Below are positions 4,616 to 29,148 of a stretch of DNA of 64,000 nt, in pieces; position 1 is the first letter of the stretch, and each line of letters starts with the position of its first letter. This stretch comes from an uncultured Enterobacteriaceae bacterium (GTDB lineage: Bacteria > Desulfobacterota > Binatia > Bin18). A model generated the notes under the pieces. That model ran no database searches and was not told the DNA's origin. It was given only the letters and a program-made list of their open reading frames with translations. The position numbers and the translations under genes are program-made. The stretch spans positions 169,520 to 233,519 of the forward strand of contig CAYTVL010000002.1 of assembly GCA_964441775.1 (NCBI GenBank), read 5' to 3'.

Positions 4616-6911
4616 ACTTCTTGTTTTCCCTGAGCGGCAACCGGCGCAAGCGCAACGAATTGGCGATCACCGATACCGAGCTCAACGCCATTGCCAGCGC
4701 CGCGAACATGGGATGCAGCAAGACGTGAAATGTCGGATACAGCACGCCGGCGGCGATGGGGATGCCGATAACATTGTAGACAAACGCCCAAAACAGATTC
4801 TGACGGATCACCTGAATCGTGCGCTGCGAGAGATTGATGGCGGCGGCTACCGTGCGCACCTCGCCGCGCATTAAGGTGATGTCCGCCGCTTCTATCGCTA
4901 CATCTGTCCCTGTTCCTAGTGCGATGCCCACATCCGCTTGGACAAGGGCTGGGGCGTCATTGATGCCGTCGCCAACCATGCCGACCCTGTGTCCTTCTTC
5001 TTGCAAGCGTGCGATCTTCGTTGCTTTGTCTTCCGGCAACACCTCGGCGAAAACCTGCGCTATTCCTGCTTGTCGTGCGATAGCGGCGGCGGTCTGCGCG
5101 TTGTCTCCAGTCAGCATCGCGACCTCTAACCCTAGACCACGCAACGTCATAACTGCTTCCGCAGCATGTGGTTTCAAGACGTCGGCCACGGCGATCAAAC
5201 CAGTGGGCTGTCCGTCAACAATGACAAACATCGGCGTTTTCCCAGCGCTTGCGAGAGTGTTGGCTTGCGTCGTTAGAGGCGCCGCATCAATCGCATAGGT
5301 AGTGAGAAGCCGCTGGTTGCCGAGGAGGACCGCTTTGCCGTCGATCTTTGCTGCGACTCCTTGTCCAGGAAGGGCGCGAAAATCCTCTACCTCGCCGAAC
5401 TCTAAGTCCAACTCTCCAGCTTTTCGTACGATAGCCTCTCCCAGTGGATGCTCACTCTGCCACTCGAGACTGGCGGCGAGGCGCAATAGTTCGGCTTCCG
5501 TGGCTTGGAACTTGGAGCTTGGAGCTGGGAGTGGAAGAACGTCTGTCACTTCCGGTTTCCCCGTCGTCAAGGTTCCAGTTTTGTCAAAGACCACAGCCGT
5601 GAGTTGATACACACGCTCAAGTATTTCGCCACCTTTGATCAGAATGCCTTGCTCGGCTCCGCGCCCCGTGCCGACCATGATTGCTGTAGGAGTGGCCAGC
5701 CCCAGAGCACACGGACATGCAATAATTAATACTGCGACGAAATTCATTAACGCGAAATTGAGTCGGGGCTCGGGGCCAAAAGTGCACCAAGCGATGAAAG
5801 TAAGGATCGCAATCGCGATTACAGTTGGGACAAAATAACTGGCGATGATATCCGCCAAGCGCTGAATCGGCGCCTTGGAGCCTTGGGCTTGGCGGACGAG
5901 TTGGACGATGCGAGCCAGCGCTGTGCCTTCCCCTACTTGTGTCGCTTGAAAGGTAAAAGCGCCGGTTCGGTTGATCGTGGCGCCGATGACTGTGTCTCCG
6001 GGCTGTTTTTCCACAGGCAGGCTCTCTCCGGTTAACATGGACTCGTCTACCGCCGAAGCTCCGTTGACAAGAACGCCGTCCACGGGAATCTTTTCCCCGG
6101 GGCGGACAGCGATCACATCGCCGACTTGCACTTGTTCGACTGCTATTTCCTTTTCTTGATTGTTGACAACAAGACGCGCGGTTTTTGGCTGCAATCCGAT
6201 CAAACGGCGAATCGCTTCGGTAGTGCGCCCCTTAGCCCGGCTCTCCATGAAGCGACCAAGCAGGATGAGCGCGATGATGGTCGCGGCAGAATCAAAGTAG
6301 AGCTGTGACGCATGAGCAGTTGAAGTGAAAAATTCCGGGACAAAAACCGCAGCGACACTGTAGAAATACGCGGCTGAAGTACCGACGGCGACCAGGGTGT
6401 TCATGTCGCTCGCGCCATGCCGCGCCGCCGTCCACGCCGCTCGGTGAAATTGCCACCCGCACCAAAACTGCACGGGCGTCGTCAGCAACAGCAACACGAG
6501 AGGGTGAGAAAGAACCGGAATCGCAACCACATGTGGCATCGAGCCCGCCATAACCAGTACGGCAATGATCCCGCTGATGATGAGTTTTAACCGCAACTCG
6601 TTAAGTTCATCGTGCTCGGGTTGGTGGGCGGTTGCGCCCGTAGGTGTCCGATCAACAACCTCGTAGCCGGTCGCCGTAATTGCTTGCTGAAGTTCGTCCT
6701 GGCTGGTTTGGTCGGGACGATAGAATACGAAAGCCTCTTCACTGGCGAGATTGACGTTTGCACGCTCCACGCCAGGAACCCGCTGCAGAGCCTGTTCAAT
6801 TTTATTGACGCACGAGGCGCAGTGCATGCCGTGGATACCAATGAGGACGTGAGCCGGGGCCGTGGGCTGAGTAGATTGAGGATGTCCGTGCGCCGTTGTC
6901 TCTGGTTGCAT
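4605..6911 (-). CDS. copA: Copper-translocating P1B-type ATPase
   Basis: N-terminal HMA domain ([12 protein letters not shown]), membrane CPC motif ([11 protein letters not shown]), DKTGTLT phosphorylation motif and GDGINDAP hinge. Confidence 0.9.
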
Positions 6912-22742: not shown

Positions 22743-24860
22743 TCAATGGCTCAGTTCTTCCAGGAGCGCCTTCGCTTCTTGCAAGTCCTTCGTATCAAAG
22801 CCCTCAGTAAACCAGTTGTAAATGTCAGCAAGCATTTGCCGGGCTTCAGCCCTTTTGCCCTGCTGCTGCCATAAACGAACCAAGCTCATCACCGCGCGCA
22901 GCTCCAGTGACTTCGCCTGCTGCTTGCGGGCGACCTCGATAGCTTTCTCAAAACACGCTTCAGCCTCTGCGACTTTTGACTTATGACCTTCGACTTGTAA
23001 CTGCAGCGTTAGCTCCCCTTTGAGCCGATACAGCTCCGCCTCGTGTATCCTCTCCTCATTCTTCTCCACGAGCGTCAGTGCCTCAGCCAGCGCCTGCAGC
23101 CCTTCTTCTGCCTGCCCCATCCCCTCATACGCCTCGGCCAGTAAGGCAAGAAAATACGGCTGCATTAATTCATTCCCTATGCCCCGCCAGGCGGCTAGGC
23201 CTTGGCGCATCCGTGTAATTCCCTCTTCCCTTTGCCCCTGCTCGGCCAGCGCCCAGCCCTGCAGCGCTGTCCCCGCGGGCAAGAAGAACGGAAACCCCTG
23301 CTCATTACACAGCGCAATCGCTGCCTCCGCCCGCTCTTGGCACGCCTGTTCCTCTCGGCGGGCTCGATGAAGTACAGCAGCAAGGCCGAGGGCAAAAGCC
23401 AAGGTATAAGGGTGAGCACGCTCGTGAGCGAGGGTCAGCGCGTCGTGGATGCGCTGTAGGGCCTGGTCCGGAAAGCCCAGATGCCATAGAGCCAGGGCCG
23501 TATAATCGCGGCTCGCCACTCCCGGGTCTTGGCCGTACAGCAGGGCATGGGACTGGTGCTGCTGAGGGTCGTAGAGAGCAATGGTCTGCTCGAAGTGTGC
23601 GCGGGCCGAGGCAAACTCGCCCCGCCAGATCAAGGTATCGCCGAGCGCAAAATGCGCCTGCAGGAGGAGCCCGGGGTCTCGGACGCTCTGTGCCAAGCTG
23701 AGGAGTTGCTCGGCCAACTCGCGCTCTGTCTGGTACTCCGCCCGCAAATGATAAAATCCAAACAGTCCCCACAGCATCGGGAAGAGTTGCGGCGTTTCCC
23801 CCAGCTGCTGGCACAGCTCCCGCGCCCGGGCGTAGGCTTGTCCCATTTCTGTAGCCCCAAAGCCCCTGGCTCCTATCAGCGCCACGCCCAGCATGATTTG
23901 GAGCATGAGCTCTTGCTGGGTGCGCTCAGAGGTATCCGGTAGGGCTTTGAGCACCTCCAGCCCTTTGGTGAGATGGCTGATCGCTTCCTCATTTGCTGAG
24001 CGCGCGATTGCGCGTTGACCTGCCTGCTGCCAGTACGGAATAGCGTGTTCGCTGAGCCCCGCCTCAGTGTAGTGGTGAGCCAGCAGTTCCGGTTGGGTCT
24101 CTTTTGTGTTGGAGAATTGCTCTTCCAATACCTGGGCAATCTGCTGGTGCAGTTGCTGGCGTCGACTCTTCAGCAATGATTGATAGGCTGTATCCTGAAT
24201 CAGCGCATGCTTGAAGAGATAGTGGGCCTGTGGCAGCAGCCCACGCTGGTAGAGCAGCTCCGCTTCCACTAACTGCTTCAAGCCGTGCTGTAACGTCTCT
24301 TCGTCTAACGGGGAGACGGCGTGGAGCAGTTCATAGCTAAACTCCCGCCCCAGGGTCGCGCCCAGTTGGGCGATCTCTCGGACGGTGGCCAAGCGGTCCA
24401 GCCGAGCCATCAAGGAGTCCTGTAACGTGCTCGGAATCGCCAACGGTGGGATGAGCGCACCGCCGTGCGCCCCGACATACCGGTTCCCTTCTTCTCGTAA
24501 CAGCCCTGACTCCACGACGGTCTTCGTCAACTCTTCGACAAAGAGGGGCACGCCGTCCGTCTTAGCCACGATTTGCTGCACTACTTCAGCCGGCAGGGCT
24601 TTGCCGCCCGTCACTCGCTCAACCATCGTCTCGACCTGGCTGCGCCCTAAGCGGCTCAGCGTCAGTTGGCTAAGGTGCGAGCGGTTCCTCCAGGGGGGAG
24701 TGAACTCAGGGCGGAACGTCAATAGGACGTACAGACGCGCGGTTGGAACTTGGTCCACTACCAGGTTCAACACTTCTAATGTGGACGGATCCGCCCAGTG
24801 GAGATCTTCCCAGGGACAGTACACAGTAGCGTTCTCCGCCTCCTCCACCAGCCACGCCAC
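22743..24860 (-). CDS. C-terminal fragment of a disrupted adenylate/guanylate cyclase-AAA ATPase-TPR gene (AAA lid plus long TPR array)
   Basis: Begins (GTG) with ...LVAWLVEEAENATVYCPWEDLHWADPSTLEVL, the continuation of a STAND/MalT-like AAA module, followed by about 550 aa of TPR-like repeats. It is in frame with the upstream fragment once the 171-bp insertion and one TAA copy are removed. Confidence 0.7.
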   Translation of the reverse strand: MAWLVEEAENATVYCPWEDLHWADPSTLEVLNLVVDQVPTARLYVLLTFRPEFTPPWRNRSHLSQLTLSRLGRSQVETMVERVTGGKALPAEVVQQIVAKTDGVPLFVEELTKTVVESGLLREEGNRYVGAHGGALIPPLAIPSTLQDSLMARLDRLATVREIAQLGATLGREFSYELLHAVSPLDEETLQHGLKQLVEAELLYQRGLLPQAHYLFKHALIQDTAYQSLLKSRRQQLHQQIAQVLEEQFSNTKETQPELLAHHYTEAGLSEHAIPYWQQAGQRAIARSANEEAISHLTKGLEVLKALPDTSERTQQELMLQIMLGVALIGARGFGATEMGQAYARARELCQQLGETPQLFPMLWGLFGFYHLRAEYQTERELAEQLLSLAQSVRDPGLLLQAHFALGDTLIWRGEFASARAHFEQTIALYDPQQHQSHALLYGQDPGVASRDYTALALWHLGFPDQALQRIHDALTLAHERAHPYTLAFALGLAAVLHRARREEQACQERAEAAIALCNEQGFPFFLPAGTALQGWALAEQGQREEGITRMRQGLAAWRGIGNELMQPYFLALLAEAYEGMGQAEEGLQALAEALTLVEKNEERIHEAELYRLKGELTLQLQVEGHKSKVAEAEACFEKAIEVARKQQAKSLELRAVMSLVRLWQQQGKRAEARQMLADIYNWFTEGFDTKDLQEAKALLEELSH

Positions 24861-24864
24861 TAAG

Positions 24865-25035
24865 GACTATGGGACAAAACTCCAACACTGGGCGTAAGGG
24901 CAGGGGGTCATTGCGAGCGCAGCGAAGCAATCTTGGCCCAGTTATTTCGGCACTTGCGAGATTGCTTCGTCGTCTGCGACTCCTCGCAATGACAGGCTCT
25001 TCGACCTTCGTTTTTAGGTTTTGTCTCACAGTCCT
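24865..25035. mobile_element. 171-bp palindromic MITE-like non-autonomous element with 17-bp terminal inverted repeats and TAA target-site duplication
   Basis: Left TIR GGACTATGGGACAAAAC (24865-24881). Right TIR GTTTTGTCTCACAGTCC (25019-25035), whose reverse complement matches 15/17. Nested inner inverted repeats (GTCATTGCGAGCGCAGCGAAGCAATCT / AGATTGCTTCG...CTCGCAATGAC). TAA at 24862-24864 and at 25036-25038. Confidence 0.6.
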
Positions 25036-26363
25036 AAGGCCGCCTGCGTCTTCTCCTTCTGCTTTTGCGGACTCCCGCTCAGCGGCGGTGAGTCCTCGGG
25101 ATGTGGGAGCGACAGTAAAGCCGCTATCAAGGGCACGGTGTCCGCCTGCGGGAAGCGATAGTGGCTCAGGGTGTGCTGGAGTTTCTCCAGCTTGACGGTA
25201 GGCGTATCCTCGCGGGCAAATTGGAGCAGACGGTGCAGGTGGTCGATGATCGGATGCAGTGCACTGTTCTGGTGATAGGGCGAGCAGCGAAACTCAATGC
25301 GGGTCACTCCAGCGGGCGCCAGCTGCTCTTTGAACTCCTGCAGCAGCCGAGATTTGCCAATGCCAGGCTCGCCACTGAGCAGCACCACCTGGCCGGTGCC
25401 CTGCTGGGCCTGCTCCCAGCGCTGCTGCAACAACGCGAGTTCCTCTGTGCGGCCCACCAGCGGCGTTAACCCTCGCCTCACCGCTGCTTCAAACCGGCTC
25501 TGGACCTCACTTTCCCGCACCACCCGGTACACGGTCAGCGGCGTGGAGAGGCCTTTTAGCGTGTGTGGCCCCAGCTCCTGGCACTCAAACAAGCCCGCCA
25601 CCAAACGCTGGGTCGCTGCACTGAGCACAACGGTGTCGGGCTGGGCTAAGTCTTGCAGTCGGGCGGCAATGTTGGGCGTCTCGCCCACGATCGCCAGCGG
25701 TTCGGGCCGGTCACTGACCCCCATCTCCCCGGCCACCACCAGGCCCGTGTGAATGCCAATGCGCACCTGTAAGGGACGGGGGAGCTGGATGGTCGGGAAG
25801 GACAGGTGCTGCATGGCCTCGACGATGCCCAACCCTACGCGCACCGCCCGGGGGGCATCGTCTTCATGGGCCGTGGGATAGCCGAAGTACACCAGCAGCC
25901 CATCGCCGATATACTTGGCGAGATAGCCCTCAAAGCGACGGATCACCGAGGCGCAGCGCCGTTGATACTCTCGCTCCACCTCGCGCAGCTCTTCGGGGTC
26001 GAGTTGTGCAGAGAGAGCAGTAGAGCCCACCAAGTCACAGAACATCACGGTGAGTTGCCGCCGCTCGGCCGTGTCCCGGCTGAGGTCTCGCGGCGGGCGA
26101 CTCGCGTCAGCGGGGGCGCTTTGCTCCTGCTGCGCTTCCCCGAGGTCTCGCTTTTCTGTGTCTTTTCCTCTGACCTGGCCGATCCAGACCAGCACCTCTC
26201 CGCCTTCGTCTGCCGCCACGCCCTCGGCTTTGATGAGTTCGCCCTTGAGGTCCTCCACATACTCATCATCCAGCGCGAAGCGGCGTTTCAAAGCCCCATA
26301 GGTCACCCGGCCACGCTGTTGCAGCAGCGCGCGGACGTGGTCCAATACTTCATCAAAAGTCAT
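25026..26363 (-). CDS. N-terminal fragment of the disrupted gene: class III adenylate/guanylate cyclase domain plus AAA ATPase Walker A region
   Basis: Cyclase catalytic region (LTVMFCDLVGSTALS...YIGDGLLVYFGYP...GIHTGLVVAGEMG) then Walker A VVLLSGEPGIGKSRLL. It ends at a TGA supplied by the inserted element. ATG at 26363 has a GGAG Shine-Dalgarno. The ORF-track start at 26411 lies 3 nt from the neighbouring gene stop. Confidence 0.7.
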   Translation of the reverse strand: MTFDEVLDHVRALLQQRGRVTYGALKRRFALDDEYVEDLKGELIKAEGVAADEGGEVLVWIGQVRGKDTEKRDLGEAQQEQSAPADASRPPRDLSRDTAERRQLTVMFCDLVGSTALSAQLDPEELREVEREYQRRCASVIRRFEGYLAKYIGDGLLVYFGYPTAHEDDAPRAVRVGLGIVEAMQHLSFPTIQLPRPLQVRIGIHTGLVVAGEMGVSDRPEPLAIVGETPNIAARLQDLAQPDTVVLSAATQRLVAGLFECQELGPHTLKGLSTPLTVYRVVRESEVQSRFEAAVRRGLTPLVGRTEELALLQQRWEQAQQGTGQVVLLSGEPGIGKSRLLQEFKEQLAPAGVTRIEFRCSPYHQNSALHPIIDHLHRLLQFAREDTPTVKLEKLQHTLSHYRFPQADTVPLIAALLSLPHPEDSPPLSGSPQKQKEKTQAALGL

Positions 26364-26414
26364 GGTAAATCTCCACGATGACCTGACCTCTTGTTCTTTG
26401 TCATTACTCATGAC

Positions 26415-27188
26415 TTATAACCGGCTGCGCATCCCCCCATCGACCCAGATGATCTGCCCGGTGATGAAGCCCGTCGTGTCGGAGGCGAGGTAGACAGCCG
26501 CAGCGGCGATTTCGTCGGGCTGCGCGAGTCGCTTCTGAGGAATGTAACGTATGAGTTGTTGCTGCGCGTCGGTGTTTTCTAAAATGCTGGCGCCTTCGGT
26601 CCACCCCGCGCCAATGACGTTGACGGTGACGCCCTTGCGCGCCCATTCGAGTGCGAGCGCACGGGTGAGGTTCAGCACCCCGCCTTGCGCCGCGCAGTAA
26701 GCGCTGCCGTTGGCCATGCCTCGCTCACTCAAGAGAGAGACAATGTGAATCATTCGTCCGCTGCCTTGTGCAAGCATGGGGCCTGCCGCCGCACGGCACG
26801 CGAGGTAGGGTCCTGTCAGATTGACGTTGAGCACGCGCTGCCATTCGTCAAAAGCAACGTCTCTCACTGGCTTCGCAAACGGCAGGTCATGCGCGTTCAC
26901 GAGAATGTCGAGCCGCCCCAACTCCGAGACCGTGCGTTGCACTAGGCCTTCGACTGCGCCAGCGTCATCCGCCTCTAGCGCCTGAGCGAAGCCTGCACGT
27001 CCTAGGGCGCGAATGTCCGCGAGACATAAATTGATCGCAGCGGTTTCCTCGGAGTTGGACAGTGTAGTAGCCACAGCGACATTCGCCCCAGCTTCGGCGA
27101 GCGCGCGCGCCGTGGCGCGTCCAATCGTGTTGGAAGCGCCGATTACGAGCGCGGTTTTTCCTTGAAGATGAAAACTTCCCGTGCTCAT
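26415..27188 (-). CDS. SDR-family short-chain dehydrogenase/reductase
   Basis: GKTALVIGASNTIGRATARALAEAGANV Rossmann motif. ATG 27188 with GGAGGG Shine-Dalgarno and ATGA overlap with the upstream SDR. Confidence 0.8.
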   Translation of the reverse strand: MSTGSFHLQGKTALVIGASNTIGRATARALAEAGANVAVATTLSNSEETAAINLCLADIRALGRAGFAQALEADDAGAVEGLVQRTVSELGRLDILVNAHDLPFAKPVRDVAFDEWQRVLNVNLTGPYLACRAAAGPMLAQGSGRMIHIVSLLSERGMANGSAYCAAQGGVLNLTRALALEWARKGVTVNVIGAGWTEGASILENTDAQQQLIRYIPQKRLAQPDEIAAAAVYLASDTTGFITGQIIWVDGGMRSRL

Positions 27189-28000
27189 GACTGCCCTCCG
27201 TGTAACGGAATGAGCGGTGCAAAGCTGGTTGGCACTTCCCCGCCTGCGAGCCCGCCGCCTTCCAGGGCGATCATTTCGCCGTTCATGTAGTTCGACGCCT
27301 CGGAAGCAAGAAAGACGCACGCGGGGCCCAGCTCTTCGTCTTTTCCGACGCGACCGACTGGAATGTATTTCCCGCCTTGCCAGAACTGCATCATCGCAGG
27401 GTCGTCATGTGGGAAGATGCCAGGGAGGATCAAATTCGTTTGGATATTCTTATCTGCATAATTAAAGGCCATCGCGCGAGTGAAATTAATCATCCCGGCT
27501 TTGCCGGTGGCGTACATGTAGTTATGTTTCATCGCGCGCACGCCGACACCGGAAGTGACATTGATAATTTTACCGCCGCCTTGCCGTAAGAAGTGCGGCA
27601 GCACGGCCCGACAGCAATAAAAGGCGCTGGAAATGTTGAGGTCGATGCCTTTACGCCACTGTTCGTCGGTAATCGCTTCAACCGGTTTGTTCCAGCCAGA
27701 TGAGGCTCCCCCGGCATTGTTGACCAGGACGTCGATGCGGCCAAACTCAGCAATGACGGAATCCACCATTGTGTTCACTGACGCGGAGTTCGTGACGTCG
27801 GTGGAGAGCGCTACACAGCGACGACCTTTCGCCCGCACCAGAGCCGCCGTTTCATCGATTTGGGCTTGTGTCCGCGCCGCGGCGACAATGTCCGCGCCAG
27901 CGTCGGCTAACGCCAGCGCCATTTCCCGTCCAAGTCCGCGCCCCGCGCCGGTGACGATAATTACCTTGCCGTCCAATCTCAGCGTATCGAGAATCCCCAT
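27185..28000 (-). CDS. SDR-family short-chain dehydrogenase/reductase
   Basis: GKVIIVTGAGRGLGREMALALADAGADIV, NNAG motif, catalytic Y...K. Confidence 0.8.
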   Translation of the reverse strand: MGILDTLRLDGKVIIVTGAGRGLGREMALALADAGADIVAAARTQAQIDETAALVRAKGRRCVALSTDVTNSASVNTMVDSVIAEFGRIDVLVNNAGGASSGWNKPVEAITDEQWRKGIDLNISSAFYCCRAVLPHFLRQGGGKIINVTSGVGVRAMKHNYMYATGKAGMINFTRAMAFNYADKNIQTNLILPGIFPHDDPAMMQFWQGGKYIPVGRVGKDEELGPACVFLASEASNYMNGEMIALEGGGLAGGEVPTSFAPLIPLHGGQS

Positions 28001-28132
28001 GAGTTTCCTCGCTCTTCCTTTTTTGTGAGCAGAATTATCCTCCTGGGGAGCAGAGCTGTCAATTTTCTGCTACAGTTTATTCTCGAGAACTTAGTACTCC
28101 GTCCAGAGAATTTTGAGGGGTTTAGGCTCATC

Positions 28133-28152
28133 ATGCCAGCATAGGCTGGCAT
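28133..28152. promoter_or_regulatory. Perfect palindrome ATGCCAGC-atag-GCTGGCAT in the divergent intergenic region (candidate operator)
   Basis: 8-bp arms with 4-bp spacer, read directly, in the 284-bp region between the divergent SDR and dienelactone hydrolase genes. Confidence 0.3.
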
Positions 28153-28284
28153 CCAGGGAGATGCGTACTGGCTTCTGGTTCTGCCTCCTGGATTCCCGCT
28201 TGCGCGACAATGACGCCGCCGCTGTCTATCCATAAAATTCAAAGTGACAGACGTCTAGGAAACTGAAACTAAGGAGGGGAAACG

Positions 28285-29148
28285 ATGGACGATGATGTAC
28301 GGAGCCTGTTGCCCAAACTGGACCTGACGCGGCGGGAGTTTGTAGTGACGGCGTTAGCGGCGGGCTTTGCGCTCGCGGTCCGTCCGGTGTCCGCGCAAAC
28401 AATTTCCACGGATGCAACAGGTTTAGAAGCTGGAGAAGTGAAGATTCCTACTGCCGATGGTCAGATCCCTGCATATCAGGCCATGCCTGCTAGCGGTGGT
28501 CCGTTCCCGGTCGTGTTAGTGGTGCAAGAAATTTTTGGCGTGCATGAACACATTAAAGATATCTGTCGTCGTTTTGCGAAACTTGGCTACTTTGCCGTCG
28601 CGCCTGAACTCTATGCTCGGCAAGGGGACGTGTCGAAAATGACCGACATTCAAGAGATTGTCTCGACTGTGGTGGCGAAAGTTCCCGACGCGCAGGTCAT
28701 ATCCGATCTTGATGCCGCTGTGGCGTGGGCCGAGAAGTCGGGCAAGGGTGAGGTAGGGAAACTCGGCATTACCGGCTTTTGCTGGGGAGGACGGATCGTG
28801 TGGCTCTATGCAGCCCACAGCTCGCGTCTCAAAGCTGGCGTCGCCTGGTATGGACGGTTAGTCGGCGACACGTCGGCGCTGACGCCCAAGAATCCAATTG
28901 ACATTGTTGCCGACCTCAAGGCTCCAGTGCTGGGCCTCTATGGTGCTGCTGATCAAGGGATTCCCACTGATACAGTGAAGACGATGCAGGACGCGCTGCA
29001 CGCCGCCGGCAACCCGTCGCAGATTGTACTGTATCCAGATACGCCGCATGGGTTCAATGCGGATTATCGCTCAAGTTATCGGAAGGAGGCTGCGCAGGAC
29101 GGTTGGAAACGGTTGCAAGCCTGGTTTAAGCAATACGGCGTCGCGTGA
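28285..29148 (+). CDS. Dienelactone hydrolase-family protein, exported (Tat-like signal)
   Basis: [24 protein letters not shown]-terminus, DLH fold with GFCWGG nucleophile motif. AAGGAGGGG Shine-Dalgarno. Confidence 0.75.

Follow-up and report, generated by a model that had tools for sequence, protein, structure and literature searches.

The 64,000-nucleotide (nt) stretch of contig CAYTVL010000002.1 analysed here, called the window and supplying the coordinates used throughout, carries two adjacent minus-strand open reading frames (ORFs), 25026-26411 (461 aa) and 22743-24860 (705 aa), which are separated by a short palindromic sequence. An earlier reading, made by a model from the letters alone (the sequence-only reading), had listed these same two ORFs at these positions and had taken the sequence between them for a transposable element of the miniature inverted-repeat kind (MITE) that splits one gene. 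Our analysis leads to a closely similar view: a 171-bp type II MITE of an IS5-family insertion sequence (IS) has very probably inserted in, and broken, an 1164-aa gene that encodes a cyclase-AAA_16-TPR protein. The features of the locus are listed below; TIR stands for terminal inverted repeat and TSD for target-site duplication, and L-numbers denote loci fetched for comparison.

22743..24863, minus strand: 3' part of the interrupted gene (codons 459-1164 and stop), with the rest of AAA_16 including a Walker B-like motif, and the TPR array
24861..24863, unstranded: left TSD copy, TAA, read on the minus strand as the Leu459 codon TTA of the host gene
24864..25034, plus strand: predicted non-autonomous transposable element (type II MITE of an IS5-family, IS427-like IS), 171 bp, recognised by its TIRs, TAA flanks and family copies
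24864..24880, plus strand: left TIR GGACTATGGGACAAAAC, the same or almost the same in every family copy and in the L086 IS of 888 bp
24907..24993, unstranded: core hairpin of the MITE, GTCATTGCGAG-CGCAG-CGAAGCAATCT ... AGATTGCTTCG-TCGTCTGCGACTC-CTCGCAATGAC, a palindromic repeat that also occurs independently in many phyla and in phage contigs
25018..25034, minus strand: right TIR GGACTGTGAGACAAAAC (in minus-strand reading), holding the TGA at 25028-25026 that ends the upstream gene fragment
25035..25037, unstranded: right TSD copy, TAA, placed from the sequence, from excision in silico and from the duplications of the family
25038..26411, minus strand: 5' part of the interrupted gene (codons 1-458), with the cyclase domain and the start of AAA_16 including Walker A

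The element is oriented with its GGACTATGGG end first, as in the family alignment. The sequence-only reading had its length of 171 bp right, and also the TAA on either side, with all positions one too high: the element had been put at 24865-25035 instead of 24864-25034, and the TAA copies at 24862-24864 and 25036-25038 instead of 24861-24863 and 25035-25037. The two 17-bp TIRs are identical at 15 of 17 positions, as had been reported (GGACTATGGGACAAAAC versus GGACTGTGAGACAAAAC), and they account for both of the TIR matches found in the 64 kb when up to three mismatches are allowed (0.09 expected; two or more in none of 100 shuffled sequences). The mismatches recur among the ten aligned family copies, one of them (the sixth TIR base) being unpaired in all ten and the other a G-T pair in nine; because of this recurrence the left/right asymmetry is taken as a feature of the family and not decay. 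Nested inverted repeats inside the element, likewise noticed in the earlier reading, comprise two pairs, each matching at 11 of 11 positions (24907-24917/24983-24993 and 24923-24933/24959-24969), and the whole element forms one long hairpin, with a folding energy of −44.8 kcal/mol as DNA and a z-score of −8.0 against shuffled sequences. Its G+C content is 53.8%, compared with 55.2% for the window.

At 171 bp the element lies inside the MITE size range (~50-500 bp), and it has no transposase gene. The only ORFs that cross it are read-throughs of about 107 aa running well past both ends, and a tblastn search with the transposase of the related IS described below found no homolog in the window, in keeping with the earlier description of the element as non-autonomous and free of ORFs of its own. 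A scan of 24600-25300 for sigma-70 promoters and intrinsic terminators found none, either in the element or beside it, so a role as outward promoter or terminator is unsupported. Rfam has no family for the element (E ≤ 1), nor did any family match the whole window at gathering scores.

Removal in silico of the element and one TAA copy (171 + 3 = 174 bp) gives ...CAG GCG GCC TTA GTG GCG TGG CTG... and a single 1164-aa ORF, as the sequence-only reading had predicted; the empty site then reads ...GCCACTAA|GGCCGC.... CTAAGG is present at both borders of the element, and for this reason a 3-bp TAA duplication and other registers lead to the same empty site. A 2-bp TA duplication of the IS630/mariner-like kind was ruled out, as it conflicts with the TTA-flanked copies of the family and would not restore the frame. 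As the locus now stands, the upstream ORF ends in ...TQAALGL*, its TGA lying inside the right TIR, which therefore supplies the stop codon as had been noted before. At the beginning of the downstream ORF there is no ATG and no recognisable site for ribosome binding; the ORF finder chose GTG 24860 as start, which simply corresponds to Val460 of the rebuilt protein.

Pfam searches with the rebuilt protein bear out the domain order given earlier (cyclase, AAA, TPR), with Guanylate_cyc at residues 118-293, AAA_16 at 317-504 and TPR repeats further on. The Guanylate_cyc match is a class III nucleotide cyclase domain and is intact in the 461-aa product, whereas the AAA_16 domain is cut: Walker A (GEPGIGKS) occupies residues 347-354 and the Walker B-like motif (WEDLHWAD) residues 476-483, and the break falls between them, after Leu459.

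A search of a large protein collection with the rebuilt protein returned thousands of relatives. The best 120 of these are 62-73% identical and contain both the cyclase and AAA_16 in each single protein; apart from a few truncated entries they are 1100-1220 aa long, and most span 98-99% of the rebuilt protein. The 30 best uninterrupted homologs (1130-1190 aa) have no gap at the junction QKQKEKTQAAL|VAWLVEEAE, whose residues are identical in P0001, P0003 and P0010. A comparison with relatives for an uninterrupted allele, which the sequence-only reading had proposed, thus yields these gapless proteins and, at the DNA level, two loci without the element. In L220, the gene of the best protein match (72-77% identical DNA), similarity to the window is lost at 24862 and resumes at 25039; in L218, a metagenome contig with 72% identical DNA that was located by a 20-mer common to filled and empty sites, it breaks at 24865/25034, and there is a single CTAAGG. 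Both are homologs of about 72-77% identity for which orthology is not proven, not close alleles. On these grounds the two ORFs are best read as one gene, split by the element.

One further locus shares the left junction. L219, a 1.3-kb metagenome contig, has at 516-539 an exact 24-mer of the window's left junction (CACCAGCCACGCCACTAAGGACT[G]), followed by GGGCGTAA, which is also found 30 nt into the MITE; L219 has no other similarity to the window. The match is probably chance combined with the conserved LVAWL coding motif, or distant homology of such a motif, and was set aside; it could also be a rearranged remnant.

The element belongs to a dispersed family. When 185,579 species genomes were scanned with GGACTRTGRGACAAAAC, 96 stretches came up, mostly chance matches, and a locus was kept only if blastn or paired TIRs confirmed it; the Geobacter loci L029 and L045, for instance, are chance matches of the 17-mer and were set aside. 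What remains is about 20 related elements at unrelated sites in at least six metagenome-assembled genomes (MAGs). The hosts are labelled Candidatus Binatia, Candidatus Methylomirabilota and Deltaproteobacteria, and there are two "binchicken" bins whose labels are doubtful. About ten copies are of ~171 bp; others are deletion derivatives of 76, 114 and 162 bp or longer forms of 222, 324 and 354 bp, and one is 888 bp long. Twelve copies have perfect 3-bp flanking duplications, six of TAA and six of TTA, all of them TWA (W being A or T), a narrower consensus than the TNA anticipated in the sequence-only reading. The copy in L082 is identical to that of the window at 171 of 171 positions and is TTA-flanked at a different site with unrelated flanks, which indicates apparently recent activity. 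The family also conserves the backbone that joins the TIRs to the core hairpin (43 bp + 41 bp).

Most of the other copies are intergenic or at extreme ORF ends, and the window copy is the only MITE found deep in a long ORF. Long ORFs begin or end precisely where family copies lie in L035 (125-293), L078 (1924-2247) and L088 (10-180), and the TAA target in L035 is also the point at which an open frame of 423 aa ends; from this it would seem that the family, in these G+C-rich genomes, usually lands at TAA stop codons and AT-rich gene boundaries. The region 2398-2695 of L034 has a solo left TIR followed by a GTAG-type sequence resembling repetitive extragenic palindromes, REPs (GTAGCCCGGATGGAACGGAGTGAAATCCGGGAG). 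This solo TIR lies immediately upstream of a full MITE copy in which the core hairpin is inverted with respect to the backbone, so that the arm with the long bulge comes first.

The 888-bp member, at 5233-6120 of L086, has the same TIRs as the MITE, TTA on both sides, and coding capacity for a transposase. On its minus strand the ORFs 6049..5648 and 5756..5388 overlap at GCAAAAAAAGGG, which contains an A AAA AAA G (A7G) slippery site, and the motif suggests putative programmed −1 frameshifting. The −1 fusion product matches PF13340 (DUF4096, E = 3.7e-18) and NCBIfam NF033580, "IS5 family transposase", with 121.6 bits (cutoff 110) over profile positions 4-203; PF01609, at 20.9, is just under its cutoff of 23. 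A third downstream frame matches NF033580 positions 207-258, the last 52, so that a second frameshift is needed, within 5388-5520, between the middle and C-terminal parts of the DDE domain. Since L053 is continuous there, this extra frameshift is a local defect of a decaying copy, or a homopolymer or sequencing error of the long-read assembly.

L053 and L010 hold further copies of the IS, which likewise end in this TIR with TTA after it, and IS and MITEs occur in the same MAGs (L086 with L032 and L078 in CAVTCR01; L010 with L017, L035 and L044 in CAZCWX01). A cognate transposase family, sought on the suggestion of the sequence-only reading, is thus at hand in L086, L053 and L010, and it is of the IS5 type that had been proposed to act in trans. 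Similarity between MITE and IS is limited to the ends, which by the published definition (PMC10969869), similarity to the parent IS restricted to the ends, makes the window element a putative type II MITE.

The traits published for the IS427 group (~830-865 bp, inverted repeats of 13-21 bp, direct repeats of 2-4 bp, two ORFs with a frameshift motif; PMC3281130) agree with those of the L086 IS in its 888 bp, 17-bp inverted repeats, two overlapping ORFs and 3-bp duplication, and by these traits the parent IS fits that group, the IS1031 group being also possible. It shares with the IS427-group elements IS1248, ISPpa2 and ISPaes1 of Paracoccus (PMC3281130) inverted repeats that start with GG, a DUF4096 N-terminus, a DDE C-terminus and an A AAA AAA G site; most Paracoccus members of the group, however, make 2-bp duplications, in contrast to the 3-bp TWA found here. 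The nearest annotated relatives of the transposase are 36-37% identical, plasmid-borne and in two pieces (Ralstonia, Burkholderia, Streptomyces), and are labelled merely "IS5 family transposase".

The site of the L086 IS deserves separate mention. Within 5071-6414 of that locus, the 888-bp IS interrupts a paralog from the cyclase/AAA/TPR family in its C-terminal TPR region, the flanking ORFs reading ...EAELYRLKGEFLL on one side and ...AKSLELRAAASLGRLWQ...KDLQEAKALLEELNL on the other. Such a site could be due to coincidence, the family being hugely expanded, or to a mild target bias.

From the sequences we infer mobilisation in trans, loss of function and a recent date, in the following manner. 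The 17-bp ends of the MITE would be bound by the DDE transposase of an IS5-family IS of ~0.9 kb, made from two overlapping ORFs that a −1 shift of frame joins at A AAA AAA G, and supplied in trans from elsewhere in the genome. Insertion would have taken place at a TWA site, the TTA codon of Leu459, with duplication of the 3 bp TAA. The upstream product would then consist of 459 native residues and Gly-Leu, with the cyclase domain and half of the NTPase domain, and the 705 downstream codons would lack a proper start. Most likely the gene, which belongs to a very large gene family, is now a null allele. A recent date for the insertion, first proposed in the sequence-only reading, is probable because the duplication is perfect, the two halves are otherwise intact and the L082 copy is identical.

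The core of the MITE is found far beyond this family. In the MITE family the core hairpin has two helices in which 95-96% of the cells are paired, and covariation amounts to three compensatory pairs, all in L013 (weak evidence). The pattern GTCATTGCGAG N4-14 CGAAGCAATC is present in at least 120 IMG/VR contigs (L097-L216), some with several matches per contig, where a rough chance expectation from its 21 specified bases is below one match. In 46 loci, 51 hairpins are complete; they measure 60-119 nt, have GTCATTGCGAG...CTCGCAATGAC as their exact bounds and unrelated flanks, and are essentially free of IS5-type TIRs in their vicinity. Plasmids or chromids of Novosphingobium (at least 40 places in one replicon), Methylosinus, Methylocystis, Aulosira and Halomonas contain the hairpin too, and one copy is that of L221 20001-20082. 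Most copies, including the window's, have a short bulge (CGNAG) in one arm and a long one (TCGC-N3-14-CTC) in the other; the long bulge sometimes has a mini-hairpin of its own, and some copies pair fully in both arms. Each arm is a small palindrome in itself.

No gene is regularly linked to the hairpin in an all-against-all comparison of neighbouring ORFs in the 120 viral loci, which recovered phage structural genes only, and tblastn found no RAYT-like gene in 217 loci, a weak test since the query sequence was approximate. A literature search for the hairpin sequence gave unrelated primer matches only. REPINs follow a 5' GT[AG]G rule and are species-specific. The inner hairpin of the MITE resembles the REP/REPIN elements (moved by RAYT, or Y1, transposases) in having two inverted units, each palindromic, that form a hairpin of 60-120 nt, and in being intergenic and multi-copy; it differs in that its units start with GTCA instead of GT[AG]G and that it is distributed across phyla and phage contigs and not within one species. 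We tentatively raise the possibility that the core (GTCATTGCGAG...CGAAGCAATC-loop-GATTGCTTCG...CTCGCAATGAC) is a cosmopolitan palindromic module with a sequence-specific function or an undescribed manner of spread of its own, and that the MITE is a chimera in which the IS5 transposase disseminates it. Phage contigs, Alphaproteobacteria, Gammaproteobacteria and Cyanobacteria all have the module standing alone, and no Rfam family matches it.

Three longer MITE copies carry an extra, structured insertion of 153-177 bp at one fixed point of the left arm (GCGAG^CGGAGCGAAGC): L078 1979-2131, L032 1221-1373 and L014 2235-2411. The nested insertions share their ends (..CCATAGCGC..GCGCTAAGC.. and ..TTTGTTTCTGAGCAG) and show compensatory changes in the 5' stem; none of the three has TIRs, and Rfam gave no match for those scanned, L078 and L014. 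They may represent a second, site-specific small element within the MITE.

The window itself has a second palindromic repeat at 28125-28215 (..TCATCATGCCAGCATAGGCTGGCATCCAGG ... CCTGGATTCCCGCTTGCGCGACAATGAC), which is intergenic, between a divergent short-chain dehydrogenase (SDR) gene (27185-28000, minus strand) and the ORF 28285-29148. Its layout is like that of the core hairpin, with ..TCAT, a small palindrome and CCAGG on one side and CCTGG, a small palindrome and ATGAC on the other. Over 110 nt it is 74.5% identical to L014 4225-4332, and similar pieces are present in L046, L093 and L096.

The host protein resembles TIGR03903 (TOMM system kinase/cyclase fusion), with which it shares the class III cyclase, the AAA_16 NTPase and the TPR array. 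The rebuilt protein differs from it in having no N-terminal kinase region and no adjoining TOMM genes, and it scores below the cutoff (671.7 against 705.75), matching profile positions 276-1265 only. AAA_16 scores 70 bits (cutoff 32.6), TPR_12 26 (cutoff 30.1) and TPR_MalT 19.5 (cutoff 45); the protein may be akin to the MalT-like STAND NTPases, its NTPase domain scoring above the cutoff and both TPR models below theirs, TPR_MalT by far.

The neighbours of the host gene are an AT3-SGNH acyltransferase, an aldo-keto reductase and two SDRs, and no Pycsar effector gene is among them. PADLOC returned only generic cyclase-domain matches to PycC (Pycsar), of up to 61.9 bits, and a Pycsar defence system was rejected, the similarity being confined to the cyclase domain and the neighbours being metabolic. 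Polar effects of the insertion are unlikely because the next gene downstream is on the opposite strand (convergent). No tRNA, other repeat or paralog of the host gene was found in the window.

Several points weigh against insertion of a MITE into a single gene. An empty allele that is truly orthologous, at more than 90% identity, did not turn up, the available sequences being homologs of ~72-77% identity at the nucleotide level; the window holds neither an autonomous IS nor a second MITE copy; and the complete IS copy, in L086, has an extra frameshift, an intact transposase gene being seen only partly, in L053, where it is cut by the contig end. Both ORFs are, moreover, long and intact, and the element is a strong hairpin, as would be expected if they were genuine separate genes (one for a cyclase with half of an ATPase, the other for an ATPase-TPR protein) with a conserved intergenic terminator or regulatory palindrome between them. 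We regard this as the least probable of the alternatives and hardly credible, for the best 120 homologs are single proteins with both domains, the junction lies inside AAA_16 between Walker A and Walker B and is gapless in 30 homologs, and the downstream ORF lacks an ATG, its GTG being Val460, with no terminator- or promoter-like site found in the region scanned. A different view would make the internal palindrome the mobile unit, a doublet of the REP/REPIN kind that an enzyme of Y1/RAYT type, or another that recognises hairpins, would move, with the outer TIRs and TAA incidental. The occurrence of the core hairpin without TIRs in at least 120 IMG/VR contigs and in plasmids or chromids of five genera is in its favour, as are the arms that are themselves small palindromes, as in REP doublets. 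What is present or absent as a unit, however, in the window and in some 15 other copies, is bounded by the TIRs and the TWA duplication and not by the hairpin; the 43-bp and 41-bp backbone outside the hairpin is conserved in the family, an IS that encodes a transposase has these TIRs and this duplication at its borders, and no RAYT-like gene was detected in any fetched locus (with the approximate query noted above, a weak test). That the palindrome was the mobile unit in this insertion is accordingly very improbable.

Could the insertion be functional, either as a phase-variable switch of a defence-type STAND protein or by releasing a deregulated cyclase fragment? The cyclase domain (residues 118-293) is intact in the 461-aa product and resembles Pycsar cyclases at up to 62 bits, and in L086 the C-terminal region of a paralog harbours a complete IS from this MITE's family. 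Yet the PADLOC matches fall only in the generic cyclase domain, among metabolic neighbours and with no effector; the resemblance to TIGR03903 is below cutoff, with the kinase part absent; most other copies are intergenic or at gene ends, as for neutral insertions; and nothing suggests precise excision. A functional insertion therefore seems highly unlikely to us, and the defence role and the phase variation that the sequence-only reading had entertained found no support.

With the insertion of a type II MITE as the preferred interpretation, the locus is an example of textbook insertional inactivation in a very large paralogous signalling family, for which a large phenotypic effect is unlikely. 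For annotation it means that the two ORFs are to be treated as one pseudogene interrupted by a mobile element and not as two genes. The TIR together with the TWA duplication defines a previously unnamed MITE/IS pair that can be used in annotating MAGs of the Binatia and Methylomirabilota type, in whose assemblies such repeats also break contigs. The core hairpin, with its conservation across phyla and phages, is the only lead that may reach beyond the ordinary.

The element is a new, unnamed example of something well known, the inactivation of a gene by a type II MITE that belongs to an IS5-family IS. Chunjie of Geobacter uraniireducens and MITEAba12 of Acinetobacter (PMC10969869) are of the same type: small and non-coding, with TIRs, direct repeats and a hairpin, present in many copies of variable length that are mostly intergenic with an occasional insertion in a gene or operon, and similar to an IS in the TIRs only. 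The window MITE differs from them in belonging to another sequence family, in its hosts (uncultured, of Binatia or Methylomirabilota type), in its 3-bp TWA duplication, and in having a core palindrome that also exists independently in many phyla.

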